In this document: piece after piece, positions 5,373 through 61,308 of the stretch
How positions within the stretch are numbered: the first letter of the stretch is position 1
Layout of the letters: each line of letters opens with the position of its first letter
Origin: a phage
Direction: 5' to 3' (one strand)
DNA length: 64,000 nucleotides
Sequence record: OZ346189.1
Made by a program: the position numbers and the translations under genes
Notes under the pieces: model-generated
What the model was told of the DNA's origin: nothing
Seen by the model: the letters and a program-made list of their open reading frames with translations, nothing else
The model's database searches: none

Positions 5373-5792
5373 ATGATCTATGAAATGCCAAAACTGATTC
5401 GTGACGATGCCCAAAACCACACCATTATTATGGGTAAACGCATGAATATCCTTTGCCGTAACGATTTCTGTGGTGTAGAATACGTTGCAGACTACTTCGG
5501 TGAGAATGGTAAACACCCTGTTCAGTTCTTCCTTGACCATGAGGATAACATTATCTGGGAGTTTGAAACTGAAGATATCCGCAACCTCTTCATCTTCCTC
5601 GGTGTCAAGGTTAAGGCCAATTTCGCGGAAGGTGAGTGCGACGATTGTGGATTTTATGAGGTGACAGACTTCTATCTCCCGAGTGGCAAGAACATTTACT
5701 ATGAGAGTCACTTCGGAAACACCAACATGCCTCAAAGCTGGGAAGAATTTTTCAGTATCGTAGAAGAGGAGCTGGCATACCGTGATTATTGA
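5373..5792 (+). CDS. hypothetical protein
   Basis: ORF with CTGGAGA RBS. Confidence 0.5.
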   Translation: MIYEMPKLIRDDAQNHTIIMGKRMNILCRNDFCGVEYVADYFGENGKHPVQFFLDHEDNIIWEFETEDIRNLFIFLGVKVKANFAEGECDDCGFYEVTDFYLPSGKNIYYESHFGNTNMPQSWEEFFSIVEEELAYRDY

Positions 5793-6240
5793 TACTGTAA
5801 AGGGAGATTTAATCTCCCTTTTTAAGAGCGGTGCTGGTCACCTAATCCACGGTTGTAACTGCTTCCACACAATGGGTAAGGGCATAGCAAAACAGATTGC
5901 CCGTGAGTTTCCTCAAGCATTGTCAGCCGACAAAGAGACCAGACACGGTTGCCTAAGTAAACTGGGTGCGTTCTCCCGATGGGAGCACTTATCTCCGAGA
6001 GGTATTGTCTACGGAATCAATCTGTATACTCAGTTCTACCCAGGGCCTAATGCTGAATATTTCTCAATCCTGAAAGGCTTTGAGCTAGTCAATGAGGTAT
6101 TCGAGGGATCGACTTTACCATTCTACATCCCTAAGATCGGATGCGGCATAGGCGGTTTGAAGTGGGAGCACGTAGAGGACGTTATTAACCTCGCCACTTT
6201 TGATATAGATATTATCGTGGTGGAGTACAAAGAGTGTTGA
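5782..6240 (+). CDS. macro-domain protein (TARG1/DarG-like ADP-ribose-processing fold)
   Basis: motif HGCNCFHTMGKGIAKQIAREFP resembles the TARG1/OARD1-type macro-domain signature (HC..DC.MGAGIA..F); GTG start with GAGGAG RBS. Confidence 0.5.
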   Translation: MIIDTVKGDLISLFKSGAGHLIHGCNCFHTMGKGIAKQIAREFPQALSADKETRHGCLSKLGAFSRWEHLSPRGIVYGINLYTQFYPGPNAEYFSILKGFELVNEVFEGSTLPFYIPKIGCGIGGLKWEHVEDVINLATFDIDIIVVEYKEC

Positions 6241-51942: not shown

Positions 51943-52066
51943 TTTTCATACTCTCCAGTTTACTCATAACTAACCCGATCAACAACACTGCATAGTGTGG
52001 TTATGTAGGTGCCAATTGAAAAACCATCATTCAATTGACTACCGTTGCCTACTAAACCTTCCTACA

Positions 52067-53350
52067 TCATTCCAGCACCTCCCAAGTGTCTGGGTTAACA
52101 TTCCGGACGCAGATACCGACAGGGAATTGGTAGTTGTTGTCTTCTGTCCTTGCTTGATATTTGAAGGTGACAAACTTGCCGATCATTTCCTGCATTCTGT
52201 CATAGCTACGCTCCTCGTGCGTACCTTTCATCTTCATTTTAACAACAACACCTTCCTTGTCAACACAGATAAGAACACCTTCATCATTCTTATCTTTCTC
52301 AACGTCAATAACTTTCACCTCTGCGTCGTTGAACTTTTTCCATTTCAATGCTTCAGATGTTCGCTGACCATACTCATATTTACCGCAGAAATTACGCATG
52401 ATAGTACCTTCATATCCTTCGGACATGAATATACCAACAGATTCTTCGCAATGATCAACTGTGTACGCAAGCTCTGCGTCAACAACCTTGATATGATCAA
52501 GCATCAGAGTGGTAACGGTATCCTCTGCATCCATAAGATCCTTGCAGCGTCCAGACTCTGTTTCTGGATCCCACCACACCTTGTCGCTAGGAATATCAAA
52601 AATGTGATACTCCAGATCGTAGCTACAGTATCCACCGTAACGCAAATCATCACGAACAGGCTCAACATCGACAGGAATATCTACCTTGTTGAAGTTTTTG
52701 TATGTTGATAAGCCTGCCTTAATTGCTGCATGACGGCGTTTTTTATCTGCCTCATAGTCTTTATCGATCTCGGCCTGAATCTCTTCCTGTGTGCGCCACC
52801 GTTTAGCAAGAGACACTATTTTCTGCAAAGGAAGACCATGAATGTATAGTTCCCCATCAAGTTGTTTAATCCCAGTGGTAGAATGGAAAGAACGAAGTTG
52901 CTCTAAAAGCTTTCCTTGAATAGGGTAGGACTTATTACCACGGGAAATAAATTTAGGCTCACCATTTTGGAAAACAACAAGCAGACGAAGGCCATCTAAC
53001 TTACGCAAGATCCAGCAAGGTAATTTAAGTGCCTTGCCACGCTTCAGGTAGTCATGCACCAGCATAGGTAAAAGATCAACACCCTGCTCGCAATCTTCCA
53101 TGTTTTCAACATACCCCAGACGGACTTGTTTTTCCCACTTGCTGATAGCCTCAAGCTCGGCCTGTTGCTCAGCTGTAGTCTCGTTGGCACGACCTACGTT
53201 TTTAGGTGTGCATACCGTCTCTTTGTACTGCAATTTACCGTCAAGCTTGCCAAACTCTACGATAACCTTTTCGCCATCAGTGAATACTTTCCACTGTTGG
53301 TAGCTGCCATCTTTGTTCAGTGCGTACAGTGTTGTTTTGATTTGATGCAT
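52067..53350 (-). CDS. ATP-dependent DNA ligase
   Basis: adenylation motif I RKLDGLR (KxDG), motif IV EGTIMR, motif V LKWKK. Confidence 0.75.
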   Translation of the reverse strand: MHQIKTTLYALNKDGSYQQWKVFTDGEKVIVEFGKLDGKLQYKETVCTPKNVGRANETTAEQQAELEAISKWEKQVRLGYVENMEDCEQGVDLLPMLVHDYLKRGKALKLPCWILRKLDGLRLLVVFQNGEPKFISRGNKSYPIQGKLLEQLRSFHSTTGIKQLDGELYIHGLPLQKIVSLAKRWRTQEEIQAEIDKDYEADKKRRHAAIKAGLSTYKNFNKVDIPVDVEPVRDDLRYGGYCSYDLEYHIFDIPSDKVWWDPETESGRCKDLMDAEDTVTTLMLDHIKVVDAELAYTVDHCEESVGIFMSEGYEGTIMRNFCGKYEYGQRTSEALKWKKFNDAEVKVIDVEKDKNDEGVLICVDKEGVVVKMKMKGTHEERSYDRMQEMIGKFVTFKYQARTEDNNYQFPVGICVRNVNPDTWEVLE

Positions 53351-53619
53351 TACTCGGCCTCTTCCTTAAAAATTTTAAACATCTCTTCTTTACTCATTAC
53401 CAACCAGTCTCCCATAAAGTCAACTAACCAATCTCCCTGGTACAAAACCAAGTTGCCAAACGGCTCAACAAGCTCACACATGCGACGAATATCTCTGGTC
53501 CGAACAGGTGACGATGTAAACACACCTGTATCAATCCACCGTTGCAGATCAGATACTGATGAAGAGCTTCCATCAAACTGGTGTGCTTCTACAGGTTTAG
53601 CAAGATTAAATAACGGCAT
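53350..53619 (-). CDS. hypothetical protein
   Basis: ORF, coupled. Confidence 0.4.
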   Translation of the reverse strand: MPLFNLAKPVEAHQFDGSSSSVSDLQRWIDTGVFTSSPVRTRDIRRMCELVEPFGNLVLYQGDWLVDFMGDWLVMSKEEMFKIFKEEAE

Positions 53620-53914
53620 TGCAGTCCTCCTTCTGTAGTAGGTCTTTTATAGGATAAACAAGTAAGTGTGGATCGGAATAACGTATAGTCCTATTCTGCC
53701 ATACTATGAACTTTATTACAACCAAATTTACAATATCTTTATCACCATGTAGCCCAACACACACATTTGTCCATATTTTGTGGTTGAAGATCTTGCTATC
53801 GATGTAGATTTTAGTGTCAAACTTATCTTCCATTCTACCTATAAGTTTGATCAGCTCCTTCATCTGGTCGCCAAACACAGCATCTTTTTCAAGATCTCTG
53901 GAATGCTTGTACAT
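53606..53914 (-). CDS. hypothetical protein
   Basis: ORF. Confidence 0.4.
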   Translation of the reverse strand: MYKHSRDLEKDAVFGDQMKELIKLIGRMEDKFDTKIYIDSKIFNHKIWTNVCVGLHGDKDIVNLVVIKFIVWQNRTIRYSDPHLLVYPIKDLLQKEDCNAVI

Positions 53915-53976
53915 AACTAACTACCTCACTGCATACTTTCCATAATAAGTAAAGCCGGGTAATCCCGGCTATGTTG

Positions 53977-54690
53977 TTAAATATACTCTGTTACATCCTT
54001 GAAGCTCGAAGGCTTCATAATCTTACCTTTACTGTCAAGGAATATAATAGCTTTATTACCGTTGTAGAACTCCTCTTTAGCAACGAAACCTTCGTAGCGA
54101 CCACCAAAACGACGCTCAAGATCTTCAATCTCTAACTCTATGAGCAATTCAGTAGACATATCTGCACTGGCACCGTGAGAATATCGTAGATGGTTGATCC
54201 GTGCAAACTTGCTGTCATTAGATTTGAGAACCTTCCGCATCATCCCACACACATCGCCGCGAAGCTGGAACAGCAAAGCTGTTGACAACTCCGCTAAGCG
54301 GTAAGCTGACGCTCTTTGCTTGGATGTGTTTTTCGCAGCGATCAGTGTATCATAGAACTCACCGATCTTGAACTTAAGACCTCGTGGATTATCAAACAGG
54401 TTTGACCACTTTTCGTGATTATCATTAACAAGATAAGCGGCATAACTTGTGACAACGTGAAGATCGCAGGCCTCTTTTAGCAGGTGATCTCCACCATCAC
54501 CTTTCTCCAGCTCTTCCAAAACCTCATTGAACTCTTCCTCAATGAAGCTAAGCTGTAATTCGAATGGTGTGTATGATTTTTTCACTTTAGCTGCCACACG
54601 GTTCCAGTTTTCCACCCAGTTGGCAGACCAAAGGTAGTTTTCAGGCTGAGACAGTTTTTCCAGGTTGTCGATCAGTTTAGTATTCAGCAT
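53977..54690 (-). CDS. hypothetical protein (weak MazG-like EExxE pattern)
   Basis: ORF; EEEFNEVLEELEK resembles all-alpha NTP pyrophosphatases but is not diagnostic. Confidence 0.35.
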   Translation of the reverse strand: MLNTKLIDNLEKLSQPENYLWSANWVENWNRVAAKVKKSYTPFELQLSFIEEEFNEVLEELEKGDGGDHLLKEACDLHVVTSYAAYLVNDNHEKWSNLFDNPRGLKFKIGEFYDTLIAAKNTSKQRASAYRLAELSTALLFQLRGDVCGMMRKVLKSNDSKFARINHLRYSHGASADMSTELLIELEIEDLERRFGGRYEGFVAKEEFYNGNKAIIFLDSKGKIMKPSSFKDVTEYI

Positions 54691-54703
54691 TGAAGGTCTC
54701 CTT

Positions 54704-55465
54704 TTAAAGTTCCATAAAGTTTTCTACAGTTTCAATAAATGCTTTATCAGAGAAAGCGTCAACAGCACCGTTAAACCATACAGGGATCCCGCGATCCTCA
54801 TATTGATAAAGGTCGCTACGTGAAATGCCACTTCCATCTGCACTCTGCGAGTCATACTTGTTTACAATCAGCAGTTTTGTGCCTTTACAAGTAGCAGGAA
54901 ACAATTCCCAGTTAAAATTAATAACTGTGTTAGAACAACCTACTAGGATCACCATATCATTGCTTGTGAGAGATGTCAACAGGTCATACATGTCTGTATA
55001 CTTAGGAGCAACCTCACCGAAGAACACTACATTGGGCTTAACCCAGGTATACTTGCCTGTATCTACCTCCGTGTATCCGATATTTTTAATTACATCATTA
55101 CCTTCAGCATCTTCGTAGGTGATTTCAGGCAAATACCCGTGGACATGTAAAATATCTTCATGTTTTACACCAGCACGCTCCAGCAAATCATCTACATTGG
55201 TGGTAAGGTTGATCACACGACCAGACCAGCGGGAATACCACTCAGCGATCCGAAGATGTGCAAGGTTAGGATCAACACTGCCCAGAGCTACACGACGTGC
55301 ATTGTAAAAGTCATGCACCTTATAGTAATTCTTGGCAAAGGTGTGAATGTTGCACACCTCATCGATGCTGAAATTCTCCCACATTGCAGTGCTACCAGAT
55401 CGGAAAGTGGGAATACCAGATTCAGCGCTCAAACCAGCACCGGAGATAATAATCAGTCGTCGCAT
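54704..55465 (-). CDS. Sir2-family (sirtuin-like) NAD-dependent protein
   Basis: N-terminal GAGLSAESGIPTFRS matches the sirtuin NAD-binding signature (GAG.S..SGIP.FR); no obvious CxxC zinc ribbon. Confidence 0.65.
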   Translation of the reverse strand: MRRLIIISGAGLSAESGIPTFRSGSTAMWENFSIDEVCNIHTFAKNYYKVHDFYNARRVALGSVDPNLAHLRIAEWYSRWSGRVINLTTNVDDLLERAGVKHEDILHVHGYLPEITYEDAEGNDVIKNIGYTEVDTGKYTWVKPNVVFFGEVAPKYTDMYDLLTSLTSNDMVILVGCSNTVINFNWELFPATCKGTKLLIVNKYDSQSADGSGISRSDLYQYEDRGIPVWFNGAVDAFSDKAFIETVENFMEL

Positions 55466-55473
55466 AAGTGTCC

Positions 55474-55824
55474 TCAGTAGATGTTTTGTTTAATCTCTAT
55501 TCCAAACTTCTTGAATGAGTCAGCAGCAAGCATAAATTTACGAGCTGCCGATGGATTAGAAGTATGCACGAAAATAATCACGTTGTCAATAAGTGGTGGC
55601 TTTCCGAATACAAGTTTCTCCTCTAGCGCAGAGAAGCAGTCGTACCCTTCAAGCACTTCACCTAGATCATTGTCAAAATACCACTCAGATACGCGTCTGT
55701 AGAGCTTTCTCTTATCATTAAGAAAATCCATAAACTCAGAAGAATTCTTTAGCCACAGAGCGTCTGGGAGTCCATAATCTGACGGATCTCTAAAATCATC
55801 AAGCCACACAATCCACTTCTTCAT
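55474..55824 (-). CDS. receiver-like (CheY-fold) small protein
   Basis: KKWIVWLDDFRD, FDNDLGE, IIFVHTSNP and a late K resemble the receiver-domain layout; weak. Confidence 0.35.
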   Translation of the reverse strand: MKKWIVWLDDFRDPSDYGLPDALWLKNSSEFMDFLNDKRKLYRRVSEWYFDNDLGEVLEGYDCFSALEEKLVFGKPPLIDNVIIFVHTSNPSAARKFMLAADSFKKFGIEIKQNIY

Positions 55825-56756
55825 TGCATATAGTCCTCGTTGTGGAAATAGTAGTCCAGTATCTCACGACGCTCCTGCTCTAATAAGCAATTCCACACAT
55901 CTTCTGTATAGTTGCTACGAATAAATTTTACCATACCGTAAAACTCTTCGTCAACACGTTTAAAGATATCATCATCCCAAATCTTCCAAGCTTTACCCCT
56001 CATTACTGCCTTCTGTGCCAGATAGTATGGAGACTTGATCTTCAGCTGCAGATCATAAGGGTAGTAAGGCTTACGAATCATATACCCTTCACCTCTTGTT
56101 TCTGCAGCTAATTCTTTTGCATAGCTGAACGGAATTTCACGCACAGTGTTAGGACGTTTTGCACCAAGGTATTTGGCAATCCCATCTAAAGCTGCTTCTG
56201 GTAGCATTATTCCAGAATCATTATATCTGCAACCTATCAAATATGCGCCATGGTCTTCTTGAACAATATGCGGATCTGAAGGGTGACAAATTTCAAACAT
56301 GAATGTCATGTTTTCATTGCCCATAACCTTCTTGATAAGATCTAAATTACCACATTGCTCTTGGATGGTTTCCTTTGCAAGGTTACAATATGGAGAATCA
56401 AGAGACCCGGTTGTTGAGAACAATAGGTCACCTTTATGAGATGATACCACACCAAGGAATCCGTTCTTTTTCTCTACCGCAGTCACAAGCTTATTGTCAG
56501 GCAGGTTGGTGGAGTTTTCTCCCAAGTTAAACACTTTTGTGAAGGGCCATGCCACAACATTTCCTTCATTACCTACAACAATGCCTCGGCACTCCAGTAA
56601 ACGAGGGGACAAATGCCATAAATTGTTGTAAAATACTTTTCTAGCATATTTATAGATCTTTAACCCGAGATCTGGGTAATACCTACTGGTTGCAAGACCT
56701 TTGTCAACTAGGTCGTCTGCATTAAAATACTTCATTATATGTTCCTCATTTGTCAT
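55821..56756 (-). CDS. RNA ligase-like nucleotidyltransferase
   Basis: ligase-superfamily motifs KKNGF (motif I variant), EGYMIR (motif IV), LKIK (motif V); adjacent to polynucleotide kinase. Confidence 0.5.
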   Translation of the reverse strand: MTNEEHIMKYFNADDLVDKGLATSRYYPDLGLKIYKYARKVFYNNLWHLSPRLLECRGIVVGNEGNVVAWPFTKVFNLGENSTNLPDNKLVTAVEKKNGFLGVVSSHKGDLLFSTTGSLDSPYCNLAKETIQEQCGNLDLIKKVMGNENMTFMFEICHPSDPHIVQEDHGAYLIGCRYNDSGIMLPEAALDGIAKYLGAKRPNTVREIPFSYAKELAAETRGEGYMIRKPYYPYDLQLKIKSPYYLAQKAVMRGKAWKIWDDDIFKRVDEEFYGMVKFIRSNYTEDVWNCLLEQERREILDYYFHNEDYMQ

Positions 56757-56856
56757 TTTGTCAGTCTATCCTGCCACACAAATAACTTAGTGTCAACACT
56801 TGAAATTAACAAAACAGTTAGGTATACTACCGTTGAAATTAAAACGGAGGGTCGCT

Positions 56857-57267
56857 ATGTCTAAAATGCTATATATCGTGCGTGGTCTACCAGGGTCTGG
56901 CAAATCAACACTGGCAAATGCGCTATCTTTAGAGGGTCTGTATCCACATTTTGAGAACGACATGTTCTGGTATGACGATGACGGCAATTACAACTGGGAT
57001 GCAAGTAAAGTAACACTCGCAGCAAAATGGTGCAAAGATAACGTAGAAGATATGATGCGTATGGGATACGACCGTATCGTGGTAAGTAATACGTTTACAA
57101 AAGAAAAACATGTGCAGGAATATGTTGACATGGCAATCACTCATGGGTATAGTTATACCGTGATCGTGGTTGAAAACCGCCACGGCAATAAAAGCATTCA
57201 TGATGTTCCAGACAAGGTTGTGGATCGTATGGAACGCCAGCTTAAAAACTGCATTAAACTTAAATGA
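56857..57267 (+). CDS. polynucleotide 5'-kinase (T4 Pnk kinase-domain-like)
   Basis: P-loop GLPGSGKST and C-terminal HDVPDKVVDRM resembling T4 Pnk; ACGGAGGG RBS. Confidence 0.65.
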   Translation: MSKMLYIVRGLPGSGKSTLANALSLEGLYPHFENDMFWYDDDGNYNWDASKVTLAAKWCKDNVEDMMRMGYDRIVVSNTFTKEKHVQEYVDMAITHGYSYTVIVVENRHGNKSIHDVPDKVVDRMERQLKNCIKLK

Positions 57268-57274
57268 GGAATGT

Positions 57275-57829
57275 ATGAAATACTTTGTAACAAGCGACAC
57301 ACACTTTCTCCACCAGCGGGTCATGGAGTTTGATTCATGTCAAAAACACAGATCTCAGTATGATCACAATCTTGACAGTATGAATGCGGGAATCATCACC
57401 AAGTGGAACTCTGTTGTGTCACCTGCAGACACTGTGTTCCACTTGGGAGATATTGCATGCACTAATGATAAGAATATCAACAAATTGCTCCCAGATATTC
57501 TAAATATGTTGAACGGACATATTATTCTTGTTCGTGGCAACCATGACACAAGGACGACTGTCAAAATTATGAAAGAGTTCGGTCATGAGGTTGTAGATTA
57601 TTACGAGCTTCGCCACAACAAGAATTTGATCTGTATGAGCCATTACCAGTTTGCAAAGTGGAACAGAAAGCCTCACGGATCAGTCCAACTGTTCGGTCAT
57701 GCTCACGGAACCACACAACAGTTGTTTGGCAGGCAGCTTGATGTCGGTTGGGATGTGTGGGGGAGACTCTTACCATTAGAAGAGGCATACCGTATTGCAA
57801 TGAGTTTTGATATTGACAGCAGGGAGTAA
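57275..57829 (+). CDS. calcineurin-like metallophosphoesterase
   Basis: motifs SDTHF, GDIA, GNHD. Confidence 0.65.
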   Translation: MKYFVTSDTHFLHQRVMEFDSCQKHRSQYDHNLDSMNAGIITKWNSVVSPADTVFHLGDIACTNDKNINKLLPDILNMLNGHIILVRGNHDTRTTVKIMKEFGHEVVDYYELRHNKNLICMSHYQFAKWNRKPHGSVQLFGHAHGTTQQLFGRQLDVGWDVWGRLLPLEEAYRIAMSFDIDSRE

Positions 57830-57876
57830 TCCCTGCTATTTTAAAGAAAATTGCCACACAAGGAGAATCAGGAGAT

Positions 57877-58227
57877 ATGAAAGATGGGGATAAGCTGCTA
57901 TATCTTAAAGTCCCCCTTGAAATACTATCTATGTCAAAAGTTTTGAATGACACAACTGGGGAGGTTGTTGTTCTTGACTTGTATGACAAGATCGTATACT
58001 GCTACCTGCACAACTGGTATAAGCTTGGAGGAAATTCACGCTTCACACCAAGCACAAGGAAAATTGCAGCAGATGTTGGGATAAAGAAAACAAAAGCAGC
58101 AGCGTGCGTTAAAACTTTAGAATGTGCAGGAGTGGTTGAAACATCCACACAAGGGAGAGGTAAAAGATGCACATTTTCCAAAGTTTTGCCACCAGAAGAA
58201 GTTATTCGGATGTCAACAACTGGTTAG
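57877..58227 (+). CDS. putative HTH DNA-binding protein
   Basis: helix-turn-helix-like segment PSTRKIAADVGIKKTKAAACVKTLECAGVV; GGAGAA RBS; directly upstream of palindromic repeats. Confidence 0.4.
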   Translation: MKDGDKLLYLKVPLEILSMSKVLNDTTGEVVVLDLYDKIVYCYLHNWYKLGGNSRFTPSTRKIAADVGIKKTKAAACVKTLECAGVVETSTQGRGKRCTFSKVLPPEEVIRMSTTG

Positions 58228-58297
58228 ACCAGTAAAAACTTAAATATCTGTACTATAAGGATTCGTATGTTTTATGTTCGCCATGGAACGGATACTA

Positions 58298-58366
58298 TTA
58301 ACTGTCCGTGATACGGACACATCTGCCCGTAATACGGACACTAACTGTCCGTGATACGGACACATA
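58298..58366. promoter_or_regulatory. two identical palindromic sites TAACTGTCCGTGATACGGACACAT plus a related half-site, followed by an AT-rich tract
   Basis: perfect inverted repeat TGTCCG-N5-CGGACA at 58303..58319 and 58349..58365; CCGTAATACGG between. Confidence 0.55.
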
Positions 58367-58866
58367 AAGAATATAACTAAAATAACTAAATAATAAAAAA
58401 TAAAAGATCTAGTACTTATGGTACTAAGTACATATACTTAACTTATGTAGAATATACTAGATCCTAAGTACCATGTTTTAAATTTATTACTTACTATGGG
58501 CAGTGTCGGCCCTTCATTGGCACTCGCCTACGAGGGGCGAGATGCCGGGCCTCCTTGGTGCACACAATAACAGAAGTTCATACATGCAGGTCTGTTAACA
58601 TGTGTGGGAGCGAAGCGATAGCGCAGGCCAAAGGCCGAGCACTGATGTGGACCACCGACGAAAGCTTGCCAGCGCCGTAAGGAGTCGGTTGAGAGTCTCC
58701 CGCACGAGCTTGGATGAAGTTTATGTGTGGAAACTGACAAGAAGGCCCCTAAATCGCTCCACAGCTATATAAACTATACCAGGTAATGCAATCGCACCAG
58801 TTTGATAGAAAAGCTCGTTACAAAGCGATACAGTGAGTTTTTCTATAACTTGAAGAGGAGGCAGCT

Positions 58867-59445
58867 ATGGGTTCACGCAAAGATGACCGTGAAAAGATTG
58901 CAAAACGTTATCAGAATGAAGAACAGATGGAGAAAACTTTCAAGTGGAAGCCAGGTTTCCAGCGTAATCATTCTAACGCTCGTGATCGTAAGCATCCGGA
59001 TAAGTGGTTAACACCGCCAAATGATGGCATGCAGGTTGGGGATGAGAAGGAGCTGTCACCTGGAAAAGATGGCAACTACATTCGCACTAAGGAAGCAGGT
59101 CCAAAGGATGACAGCTATCTTGTAGATAAGGTTCTTGACGGTGTTGATGTAGGTGTTGACACTGTACGAAACCTTTTTCTTGGTTGGTATCGCACAGGGT
59201 TTTTCGACATCAAGGCTATTCGTCGTGTTTGTGATATTAAAAAGTCTGCCTACGATGATGATTCCCTACATCGCACTCTGAGACAATACTCAGAGAGGTA
59301 CGGTCATCCAGTTATCACTCTTGACGATATTAACGAAGTTATGTATCATGTAGAGGTTGTTGCAGGTAGGTTCGGTGATGCATATCTCGGTATTCTTTCT
59401 GCAAAGGATGAGGTAATGTTAAATAAGATTTACTATGAACGCTGA
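58867..59445 (+). CDS. hypothetical protein
   Basis: ORF with GAGGAGG RBS. Confidence 0.5.
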   Translation: MGSRKDDREKIAKRYQNEEQMEKTFKWKPGFQRNHSNARDRKHPDKWLTPPNDGMQVGDEKELSPGKDGNYIRTKEAGPKDDSYLVDKVLDGVDVGVDTVRNLFLGWYRTGFFDIKAIRRVCDIKKSAYDDDSLHRTLRQYSERYGHPVITLDDINEVMYHVEVVAGRFGDAYLGILSAKDEVMLNKIYYER

Positions 59446-61210: not shown

Positions 61211-61308
61211 AGCTAGGTAAGCCCTTTGGCAAGGGCGAGGATTTTTAATCCTGAAAATAGACGAGGTAGTCGTTGAATACATAGGTGGTTCGATTCCATC
61301 ACCTAGCA
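61211..61308 (+). tRNA. atypical tRNA-like sequence (anticodon loop reads TTTTTAA, possibly Lys-TTT) with an approximately 30-nt insertion in the variable region
   Basis: acceptor GCTAGGT/ACCTAGC, D-arm GCCC/GGGC and T-arm GGTGG-TTCGATT-CCATC are recognisable; anticodon stem has only 4 bp; no encoded CCA. Confidence 0.3.

Follow-up and report, generated by a model that had tools for sequence, protein, structure and literature searches.

What does a sirtuin do among enzymes that heal and seal RNA ends? The question is raised by the phage sequence record OZ346189.1, of which a stretch of 64,000 nucleotides (the window) was analysed. Towards one end of this window an RNA ligase, a receiver-like protein of the cREC (cyclic-phosphate-processing receiver) family, a sirtuin (Sir2) and a MazG-like pyrophosphohydrolase are encoded in a row on the minus strand, and a polynucleotide-kinase-like protein and a calcineurin-superfamily metallophosphoesterase are encoded divergently next to them (Table 1). 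With moderate confidence we read the six genes as a two-layer cassette for the repair of RNA breaks. Its core, the triad of kinase, phosphoesterase and ligase, acts with good probability in RNA repair. Its add-on of cREC, Sir2 and the MazG-like protein would be linked to nicotinamide adenine dinucleotide (NAD), whereby the sirtuin step, an NAD-dependent removal of 2'-phosphates, is the least secure one and is put forward tentatively.

The gene set, its phage prototype and this interpretation are already published, and the finding is to that extent known as a prediction. Iyer, Burroughs, Anantharaman and Aravind described a sirtuin-centred phage RNA-repair neighbourhood, whose configuration 2, with Escherichia phage V5 and Proteus phage Mydo as prototypes, comprises a sirtuin, a T4-like ligase, cREC, a nucleotide kinase, a pyrophosphatase of the MazG superfamily and an optional calcineurin-like phosphoesterase (Viruses 2022, PMC9503650, section 3.7.3). 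The window carries the identical gene set, with all six genes within 3.9 kb and no difference in composition. The same authors predicted that the sirtuin removes 2'-phosphates from RNA like KptA/Tpt1, and that cREC together with other phosphoesterases opens the cyclic phosphate or processes ADP-ribose cyclic phosphate (PMC9503650). They had defined cREC in a 2021 paper on jumbo phages (PMC7824862), and it is stated to be experimentally uncharacterised. An earlier reading of the window from its letters alone, in the following called the original prediction, had regarded Sir2 and the receiver-like protein as unusual companions of repair enzymes; they instead belong to a described configuration, and the coupling to NAD or ADP-ribose chemistry that it considered possible coincides with the published prediction for this neighbourhood. 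To the published picture we add the division into core and add-on, kinase-ligase fusions, a linkage of cREC to the ligase that is independent of Sir2, and genes of the NARP1 type as the commonest neighbours. Further additions are three traits of the Sir2 clade (its class III Tyr/Arg pair, the substitution to TTN and a ribbon without cysteines), as well as the confirmed receiver fold and a DxD-like pair in cREC.

Layout of the locus and its protein families

The 6.3 kb from 52000 to 58300 share 99.7% identity with Escherichia phage CarlMeissner (Vequintavirus murica, BASEL collection), and by its sequence the window is assigned to an rV5-like (V5-like) Escherichia coli phage. In the matching records these genes are annotated in GenBank as RNA ligase, sirtuin-domain deacetylase, polynucleotide kinase and phosphoesterase. 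The cassette consists of two divergent units. Transcription of the minus-strand unit runs from the RNA ligase through cREC and Sir2 to the MazG-like gene, with the ligase stop overlapping the cREC start by 4 nt and with gaps of 8 nt between cREC and Sir2 and of 13 nt between Sir2 and the MazG-like gene, while the kinase gene is followed by the phosphoesterase gene in the plus-strand unit. The sole terminator-like hairpin of the minus-strand unit lies just past the MazG-like stop, which is probably where the ligase-cREC-Sir2-MazG transcription unit ends. As the gaps are short and this single hairpin follows the MazG-like gene, the latter is counted as part of the ligase unit. The original prediction had placed five genes in the cluster, all of which are present, but had missed this sixth one directly downstream of Sir2.

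Searches of the PDB with single sequences were uninformative for the ligase, cREC, the kinase and the MazG-like protein, and family profiles were used for structural assignments. The ligase scores 55.4 bits against Pfam RNA_lig_T4_1 (PF09511; cut-off 28.3, E=1e-14). Across 33 sequences of about 45% identity the residues R51, K68, F70, K90-x-N-G93, S108/T110/G111, E149, E217/G218 and K233/K235 are invariant, and motifs I (KxxG), Ia, III, IV and V are intact, with K90 as the adenylylation lysine. The family profile matches T4 Rnl1 (2c5u) with E=3.5e-13, restricted to T4 residues 51-250. After motif V the protein has about 65 residues, which do not align to the C-terminal tRNA-specificity domain of T4 Rnl1 (T4 residues ~255-374), and the equivalog cut-off for T4 RnlA (TIGR02308) is missed with 38.5 versus 242 bits. 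Because the T4 C-terminal domain is unmatched and this cut-off is missed, we assign the protein by sequence to a distinct, shorter subfamily of Rnl1-type RNA ligases. The family is found in 662 phage records, among them rV5-like, phi92-like, Mydo-like, Pseudomonas PaP1-like, Vibrio, Acinetobacter and Streptomyces phages. Although the longest open reading frame (ORF) extends from 55821 to 56756 on the minus strand, translation likely starts at 56738 rather than at 56756, since an upstream GAGGA Shine-Dalgarno sequence, the N-termini of homologues and the GenBank record agree on this start.

The kinase exceeds the cut-off of Pfam AAA_33 with 42.7 versus 27 bits (E=9e-11). In 31 sequences of its family the P-loop GLPGSGKST is accompanied by an invariant D35, which is aligned to the catalytic Asp35 of T4 Pnk. 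The best solved relatives of the family profile are T4 Pnk (1ly1/1ltq, 1.5e-8), Capnocytophaga Pnkp1 (4xrp), the kinase of Clostridium thermocellum Pnkp (4gp7) and PSTK, which places the protein, as far as profiles can tell, in the T4 Pnk clade of polynucleotide 5'-kinases. It consists of the kinase domain only and has no HAD-type DxDxT phosphatase domain.

For the phosphoesterase the Pfam scores lie just over gathering (Metallophos_2 28.3 bits, cut-off 27; Metallophos 27.8 bits, cut-off 21.5), and PHROG 547 is matched with 1.8e-51. All five metal and phosphate motifs (DxH, GD, GNH, H, GHxH) are present and conserved in 33 sequences, with H10, G58/D59, G88/N89/H90, H123 and H142/H144 invariant and D8 nearly so. 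The only clear solved relative is the uncharacterised Aquifex protein aq_1665 (1xm7, profile E=1.2e-22), and the protein is accordingly grouped, from its profile, with an aq_1665/YfcE-like branch. An assignment to the lambda-phosphatase/Pnkp1 branch was rejected, as the profile does not match Pnkp1 (4xrp).

Sir2 reaches 98.2 bits against Pfam SIR2 (PF02146; cut-off 24, E=6.9e-28), and its closest solved relatives are the class III sirtuins E. coli CobB (1s5p, E=3.2e-21) and SIRT5. An AlphaFold2 model with a predicted local distance difference test (pLDDT) value of 90 superposes best on CobB, with template modelling (TM) scores of 0.77/0.86. Throughout 37 clade members the motifs GAGxSxxSGxxxFR, TTNVD and HxHG are kept, with G9-A10-G11, S16, F21, R22, N90, D92 and H109 invariant, and the same holds for the Tyr/Arg pair of the class III motif FYNxRR (Y54, R57). 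The NAD pocket, the catalytic His and this pair are thus common to the phage protein, CobB and human SIRT5. In contrast to both, the phage Sir2 reads TTNVD in place of the usual TQN(I/V)D, a substitution found in every clade member, lacks the zinc cysteines and adjoins RNA-end enzymes. There is no Cys between H109 and K143 and there are no conserved Cys pairs in the 37 members, in line with the missing zinc ribbon noted in the original prediction; the ribbon hairpin itself remains as beta-strands. Orthology to CobB was rejected, as the NCBIfam equivalog cut-offs are missed with 104 versus 320 and 122.6 versus 243 bits, and so was a defence-type NAD-cleaving enzyme (NADase; ThsA, DSR etc.), as no PADLOC model matched at E<=1e-3.

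The cREC protein scores 52.3 bits against Pfam PF20274 (cut-off 27). Its conserved aspartates stand at the ends of strands 1 and 3 as expected for a receiver fold, and the acidic pocket is kept, strand 1 being followed by D9/D10, strand 3 by D51 and strand 4 by T88/S89. Specific to cREC are the conserved residues R12, D53, H87, N90, P91 and K96. Of these, the invariant D53 lies two residues past the acceptor D51, recalling the DxD of HAD phosphatases, and this pair would suit an enzyme better than a signalling module. Histidine kinases were not seen near cREC, and no systematic search was aimed at them. The MazG-like protein keeps the EExxE...DxxD metal motifs, with E52, E53, E56 and D76 invariant and D72 nearly so in 12 homologues. 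It has no Pfam match, and among solved structures it gives a marginal match to HisE (1yvw, E=0.025) over the motif.

Together, these searches bear out the family assignments of the original prediction, namely an RNA rather than a DNA ligase, a T4 Pnk-like kinase, a calcineurin-type phosphoesterase, a sirtuin and a receiver-like protein. The motifs it had quoted (KKNG with K90, EGYMIR, LKIKS, GAGLSAESGIPTFRS and GLPGSGKST) are all found in the proteins, and a separate DNA ligase is encoded in the same window.

Conservation of the cassette across phages

The 6.3-kb region is kept at an identity of at least 90% in 122 of the 123 matching rV5-like phage records. To look beyond this group, 80 divergent viral contigs retrieved via the ligase were searched with profiles from the window proteins over 8 kb on either side of the ligase gene. 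The kinase was found in 73 of these 80 loci and the phosphoesterase in 62, both usually abutting or overlapping the ligase gene. In 11 loci kinase and ligase are even fused, as checked with Pfam (L043, L045, L049-L051, L055, L056, L059-L062), into polypeptides of about 420-430 residues with an N-terminal Pnk-like kinase and a C-terminal Rnl1-type ligase; the aq_1665-type phosphoesterase is absent from the retrieved flanks of these fusion loci. Kinase, ligase and phosphoesterase form a conserved end-healing and sealing core. As 122 of 123 records keep the region and the triad is found again, with protein identities of about 40%, in the majority of the 80 unrelated viral contigs, the cluster is far beyond chance, and the conservation of the gene neighbourhood, which the original prediction had named as a check, is confirmed.

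The remaining genes are much rarer. cREC and the MazG-like gene each lie near the ligase in 13 of the 80 loci and Sir2 in 11, and because of these low counts Sir2, cREC and MazG are a lineage-specific add-on of rV5-like and Mydo-like phages. A 102-residue protein encoded downstream of the MazG-like gene co-varies with this set: of the ligase loci, 10 of the 11 with Sir2 have it and none of the others. It may belong to the add-on module as a further member that has so far gone unrecognised. Five loci (L044, L073, L069, L007 and L008) have cREC in the operon of the ligase while Sir2 is absent from the 8 kb on either side, two of these genomes carrying Sir2 more than 20 kb off; this would tie cREC to RNA-end chemistry and not only to Sir2. 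ORFs occupying the position of cREC in loci with Sir2 and without cREC (e.g. L010 9325-9810) have no Pfam match.

A second census was centred on Sir2, whose clade is present in 1,012 phage records, mostly of T5-like phages, and covered 76 loci and 11 gene families. The ligase lies within 8 kb in only 11 of the 76 loci. A HAD_SAK_2 phosphatase was found in 28 loci (T5-like), the metallophosphoesterase in 16 and none of the 11 families in 19. In T5-like phages the orthologous Sir2 gene is located about 320 bp upstream of the HAD_SAK_2 'RNA-repair' phosphatase gene, with two small ORFs in between. In phage T5 itself (locus L002, record 57588-58927) the order is Sir2 T5.102, HAD_SAK_2 T5.105 and the DUF7415 proteins T5.106 and T5.107.

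Around the ligase, the commonest neighbours other than those discussed so far are linked to NAD. A NAMPT-like gene is present in 40 of the 80 ligase loci and a Prs-like (phosphoribosyl-pyrophosphate-synthetase-like) gene in 36, and the pair (loci in the range L006-L084) has the composition of the NAD-reconstitution system NARP1. Genes for macro-domain proteins occur in 20 loci, and in some loci Tad3 (anti-Thoeris), NUDIX and HAD_SAK_2 are among the gene families at most 4 kb from the ligase. This suggests a recurrent island of RNA-repair and NAD-restoration genes around the ligase cluster. The components correspond to those of NARP1 and NARP1-AP (Adps, Namat and the macro phosphatase Adpp), whose function is NAD restoration and not RNA repair. 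Adpp, a Poa1p-like phage macro protein, is an ADP-ribose-1''-phosphate phosphatase that works with NARP1 (2026 preprint, bioRxiv 10.64898/2026.01.28.702374). No Prs-like or NAMPT-like gene is present in the 64-kb window.

A proposed repair route and its rivals

What is established is the anatomy of the genes, their assignment to families and folds, the integrity of the catalytic residues, and the conservation, order and fusions of the genes across loci; from this we infer the activities, the RNA substrate and the order of steps as follows. In the core, the Pnk-like kinase would phosphorylate the 5'-OH, the binuclear metallophosphoesterase would open or remove the cyclic or terminal phosphate, and the Rnl1-type ligase, adenylylated on K90, would seal the 3'-OH to the 5'-phosphate, a logic that by analogy follows T4 Pnkp/Rnl1 and bacterial Pnkp. 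In the rV5-like and Mydo-like phages the ligase would be co-transcribed with the add-on genes. There, cREC would be a phosphoesterase whose substrate is either the RNA end or a by-product, a cyclic ADP-ribose phosphate. Sir2 would move ADP-ribose from NAD+ onto the 2'-phosphate of healed or sealed RNA, as Tpt1/KptA do, releasing nicotinamide and ADP-ribose 1'',2''-cyclic phosphate, and the MazG-like enzyme would degrade the ADP-ribose by-product. Tpt1 and sirtuins share a first step, in which an oxygen of the substrate attacks C1'' of NAD+ and nicotinamide leaves, and a second one, in which the 2''-OH of the ribose attacks the centre of the substrate and a 1'',2''-cyclic species is formed. Due to this shared mechanism, a sirtuin doing Tpt1 chemistry is mechanistically plausible. 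By sequence and model the protein is nevertheless a sirtuin and has not the ADP-ribosyltransferase fold of KptA, so that any relation between Sir2 and Tpt1 would be one of functional analogy only.

Several known systems share parts of this logic. T4 Pnkp and Rnl1, which repair tRNA-Lys after PrrC, likewise combine a P-loop kinase with Asp at the same position and an Rnl1-type domain in a heal-then-seal order. T4 Pnkp, however, bears a HAD DxDxT 3'-phosphatase domain, whereas the phage kinase stands alone and end healing is assigned to the metallophosphoesterase and possibly to cREC. In addition, the phage ligase lacks the C-terminal domain of T4 Rnl1 and stays far below the RnlA cut-off as given above, and T4 has no sirtuin partner. 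Bacterial Pnkp systems (C. thermocellum Pnkp/Hen1; Capnocytophaga Pnkp1-Rnl-Hen1) show the same combination of kinase, calcineurin-superfamily phosphoesterase and ATP-dependent ligase. Pnkp of the C. thermocellum type is one polypeptide, whereas the phage genes are separate, with an aq_1665/YfcE-like phosphoesterase and a ligase of the Rnl1 type. A scan of the ORFs at 52-58.3 kb, the only part of the window covered by this search, gave no Hen1 methyltransferase. Judged by its proteins, the cassette would work like T4 Pnkp/Rnl1 and bacterial Pnkp and is a member of neither at family level. The bacterial Pnkp-type toolkit split into separate genes, as the original prediction had it, therefore stands functionally, in view of the kinase relatives and the 11 kinase-ligase fusions, but not for the phosphoesterase and ligase, whose families differ from those of bacterial Pnkp.

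The closest parallel for the add-on may be tRNA splicing in fungi and plants, in which Trl1 (ligase, kinase and cyclic phosphodiesterase) and Tpt1 are followed by Cpd1 and Poa1p. In the fungal route the cyclic phosphate is turned into a 2'-phosphate, whose NAD-dependent removal yields ADP-ribose 1'',2''-cyclic phosphate that is processed further; the phage cassette would follow the same logic if the prediction holds, and the phage also encodes a Poa1p-like macro protein. The enzymes differ, as the Sir2 fold is unrelated to Tpt1, cREC is unrelated to 2H phosphoesterases and no similarity to Trl1-type ligases was detected, and the cassette may thus parallel the Trl1/Tpt1/Cpd1/Poa1 route by means of non-homologous enzymes. 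In its fullest form, which we regard as doubtful, the zinc-less Sir2 would be a non-homologous replacement of Tpt1/KptA and cREC an aspartyl-phosphate phosphoesterase with a HAD-like DxD, together running a 'yeast-style' 2'-phosphate route, the MazG-like enzyme would degrade the by-products, and related phages would recycle them to NAD+ via the macro phosphatase and NARP1.

A number of findings weigh against this reading of the add-on. The core triad is complete without Sir2, cREC and MazG in about 85% of the ligase loci, so that repair as such does not require the add-on. T4 Rnl1, which the ligase resembles, needs no 2'-phosphate, and the profile search with the ligase family revealed no homology to the 2'-phosphate-requiring Trl1-type ligases at E<=1. 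Around eight distant cREC homologues (L099-L106) the neighbours are mostly unannotatable, with one NUDIX and no recognisable repair genes. Our literature search found no experimental study of phage Sir2 or cREC, or of the activity of the cassette proteins. The remaining points also speak for the main rival, a serious one that we consider possible and yet not probable. Here Sir2, perhaps with cREC and MazG, would have a separate NAD- or ADP-ribose-directed function and merely share an island with the repair triad. This function might conceivably be to take over the host, through deacylation or ADP-ribosylation of proteins, or to counter its defences by destroying NAD-derived signals. Sir2 is nearest to the deacylases CobB and SIRT5 in both sequence and structure and retains the whole deacylase-type active site, including the acyl-carboxylate-binding pair Y54/R57. 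Its clade is acidic, with a median isoelectric point of 5.1, which differs from Tpt1. Most phages with Sir2 have no ligase, as seen from the small share of Sir2 loci with a ligase nearby and from the T5-like phages, which hold most Sir2 records and in which the ligase family does not turn up, and 19 Sir2 loci have none of the families searched. In phi92-like genomes Sir2 is set apart, more than 20 kb from the cREC/phosphoesterase cluster. Furthermore, ligase loci are often embedded among NAD-salvage and anti-defence genes, with NAMPT-like, Prs-like, Tad3, NUDIX and macro genes as neighbours elsewhere, and co-location may reflect this island instead of a pathway. For NARP1 and its macro-domain phosphatase, a role in counter-defence has been shown by experiment (bioRxiv 10.64898/2026.01.28.702374).

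On the other side, Sir2 shares a tight operon with ligase and cREC in rV5-like phages; in Mydo-like phages its tight operon includes the kinase, and in T5-like phages its partner again comes from an RNA-end phosphatase family, HAD_SAK_2. The distance to the CobB cut-offs, the loss of the zinc module and the invariant TTN for TQN indicate that the clade has diverged from housekeeping deacylases, and there is no similarity to the Sir2 models of defence-type NADases. An NAD-consuming enzyme would also be odd beside NAD-restoring genes unless its products are recycled. We retain the two-layer repair cassette as the reading of the locus, with the sirtuin step held at the lower strength given above.

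The kinase and the phosphoesterase could instead heal DNA ends, with 5'-OH and 3'-phosphate, for the adjacent DNA ligase and so form a unit for the repair of DNA nicks or breaks, a reading that we judge improbable. T4 Pnk-type kinases act on DNA as well as on RNA, a DNA ligase gene lies within 8 kb of the RNA ligase gene in 40 of the 80 loci and at a distance of 2.4 kb in the window, and the phosphoesterase gives a weak match to the ligase-associated DNA-damage phosphoesterase PdeM. This match is sub-threshold and, with 21 bits against a cut-off of 150, far under it, the genes for kinase and phosphoesterase adjoin that of the RNA ligase with far greater consistency than that of the DNA ligase, and all 11 fusions join the kinase to the RNA ligase and none to the DNA ligase.

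Lower still in probability is a service to the phage's own RNA metabolism, in which the cassette would mature or re-join phage tRNAs or transcripts cut by a phage RNase. A cluster of seven tRNA genes, including an atypical one of 97 nt, follows 3 kb downstream and shares the strand of the kinase unit, and tRNA genes are found within 8 kb of the ligase in 29 of the 80 loci. Their density of 1 per 15 kb is, however, not demonstrably enriched over the genome-wide tRNA density, and tRNA proximity was set aside as evidence; of the link to the phage tRNA set drawn in the original prediction, the nearby cluster is confirmed, as proximity only. No intron-like interruption and no phage endoribonuclease was identified, and T4 Pnkp and Rnl1, acting against PrrC, provide a precedent for counter-defence. 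That the ligase-like protein is a tail-fibre attachment factor is very unlikely, as the GenBank/PHROG name 'RNA ligase and tail fiber protein attachment catalyst' was rejected as a label inherited from T4 gp63 via PHROG 562, only the nucleotidyltransferase domain is common with T4 Rnl1 and the T4 C-terminal domain is missing, the catalytic residues are strictly conserved, and the gene lies among genes of nucleic-acid enzymes and not among structural genes.

Surrounding features and biological meaning

Table 1. Features of the cassette and of its surroundings, with positions in the 64,000-nt window
Feature	Position	Strand	Length	Basis or remark
Rnl1-type ATP-dependent RNA ligase (MKYF...)	55821..56738	-	305 aa	Pfam RNA_lig_T4_1, conserved motifs, T4 Rnl1 profile match
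Polynucleotide-kinase-like P-loop kinase, stand-alone	56857..57267	+	136 aa	Pfam AAA_33, family alignment, T4 Pnk profile matches
Calcineurin-superfamily binuclear metallophosphoesterase	57275..57829	+	184 aa	Pfam Metallophos_2/Metallophos; PHROG 547
cREC protein	55474..55824	-	116 aa	Pfam PF20274 cREC_REC
Sirtuin Sir2, class III / CobB-like	54704..55465	-	253 aa	Pfam SIR2; CobB match; AlphaFold2 model
MazG-like all-alpha nucleotide pyrophosphohydrolase	53977..54690	-	237 aa	PHROG 671 'nucleotide pyrophosphohydrolase', E=5.7e-22
Terminator-like GC-rich hairpin AGCCGGG-loop-CCCGGCT	53953..53970	-		6 nt past MazG-like stop; consensus scan
Divergent intergenic region between ligase and kinase units	56739..56856	.	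118 bp	Consensus match only
Protein of unknown function	53606..53914	-	102 aa	PHROG 7684; no Pfam match
ATP-dependent DNA ligase	52067..53350	-	427 aa	Pfam DNA_ligase_A_M + OB_2; PHROG 114, 2.8e-83
Helix-turn-helix (HTH) protein	57877-58227	+		DUF6945/HTH_36; PHROG 12838 'replication initiation protein'; directly downstream of phosphoesterase
Macro-domain protein, T4 Tk.4 / DarG / Poa1p-like	5782..6240	+	152 aa	Pfam Macro 28.5 bits; ~49 kb from cassette
Atypical tRNA-like gene	61212-61308	+	97 nt	ARAGORN four-base anticodon 'atcc'; Rfam tRNA 35.5 bits

The spacer between the two units contains a sigma-70-like site (TTGAAA-17-TATACT, 56800-56828, plus strand), which is a consensus match only, and the Shine-Dalgarno sequence GGAGGG of the kinase gene. 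In consensus scans of the region for promoters and terminators the site counts were not above shuffle expectation, and the only results of note are this one site upstream of the kinase and the hairpin after the MazG-like gene. Among the neighbouring genes, the protein encoded at 52067-53350 is by its domains a DNA ligase, distinct from the RNA ligase and a frequent neighbour of the cassette. The HTH protein, called a transcriptional regulator in GenBank, could regulate the cassette unit; its homologues adjoin the cassette on the opposite strand in about eight other loci.

The macro-domain protein may handle ADP-ribose-phosphate. It matches the macro family found near the ligase in other phages with E=1.3e-36, a family present in 2,727 phage records, and its matches to the NCBIfam and PADLOC models of the DarG macro domain are below cut-off. 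The record of CarlMeissner annotates this region as two small hypothetical ORFs, and the ORF is intact in the window. A functional link to the cluster, as raised in the original prediction, finds the same family near the ligase in a quarter of the loci, but never together with Sir2, cREC or MazG. As macro and Sir2 set are mutually exclusive within 8 kb and the macro family, of the Tk.4 type, is extremely widespread, a link between macro protein and cassette remains weak and speculative.

The atypical tRNA-like gene can be read as an anticodon hairpin AGGAUUUUUAAUCCU (possibly UUU, Lys) with an extra arm of about 25 nt. Its fold is well below shuffles (z = -4.1), and the closest GenBank record labels it tRNA-Lys (AAA). 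tRNA-Lys(UUU) is the target of PrrC and PARIS, and an altered copy could act as a nuclease-resistant substitute. As to the origin of the matching records, 18 are titled 'Campylobacter phage' (e.g. MG065654, MG065666; host Campylobacter jejuni) and match the rV5-like region, those listed being about 97% identical; these host labels are probably wrong or due to contamination.

More than 100 genomes carry annotations of the gene set, which has also been interpreted in the literature, and its value lies in providing a well-defined experimental target. If the prediction is true, sirtuins would act on an RNA phosphate instead of acyl-lysine, receiver domains would be stand-alone phosphoesterases, and phages would run an NAD-dependent route of RNA repair that has so far been seen in eukaryotic tRNA splicing. 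It would also join two fronts of the conflict between phage and host, tRNA cleavage and NAD+ depletion, given the NAD-reconstitution genes beside the ligase cluster in about half of the loci. Both rV5-like and T5-like phages are frequent candidates for therapy, and host range would be easier to predict if it were known which nucleases of the host the cassette neutralises.

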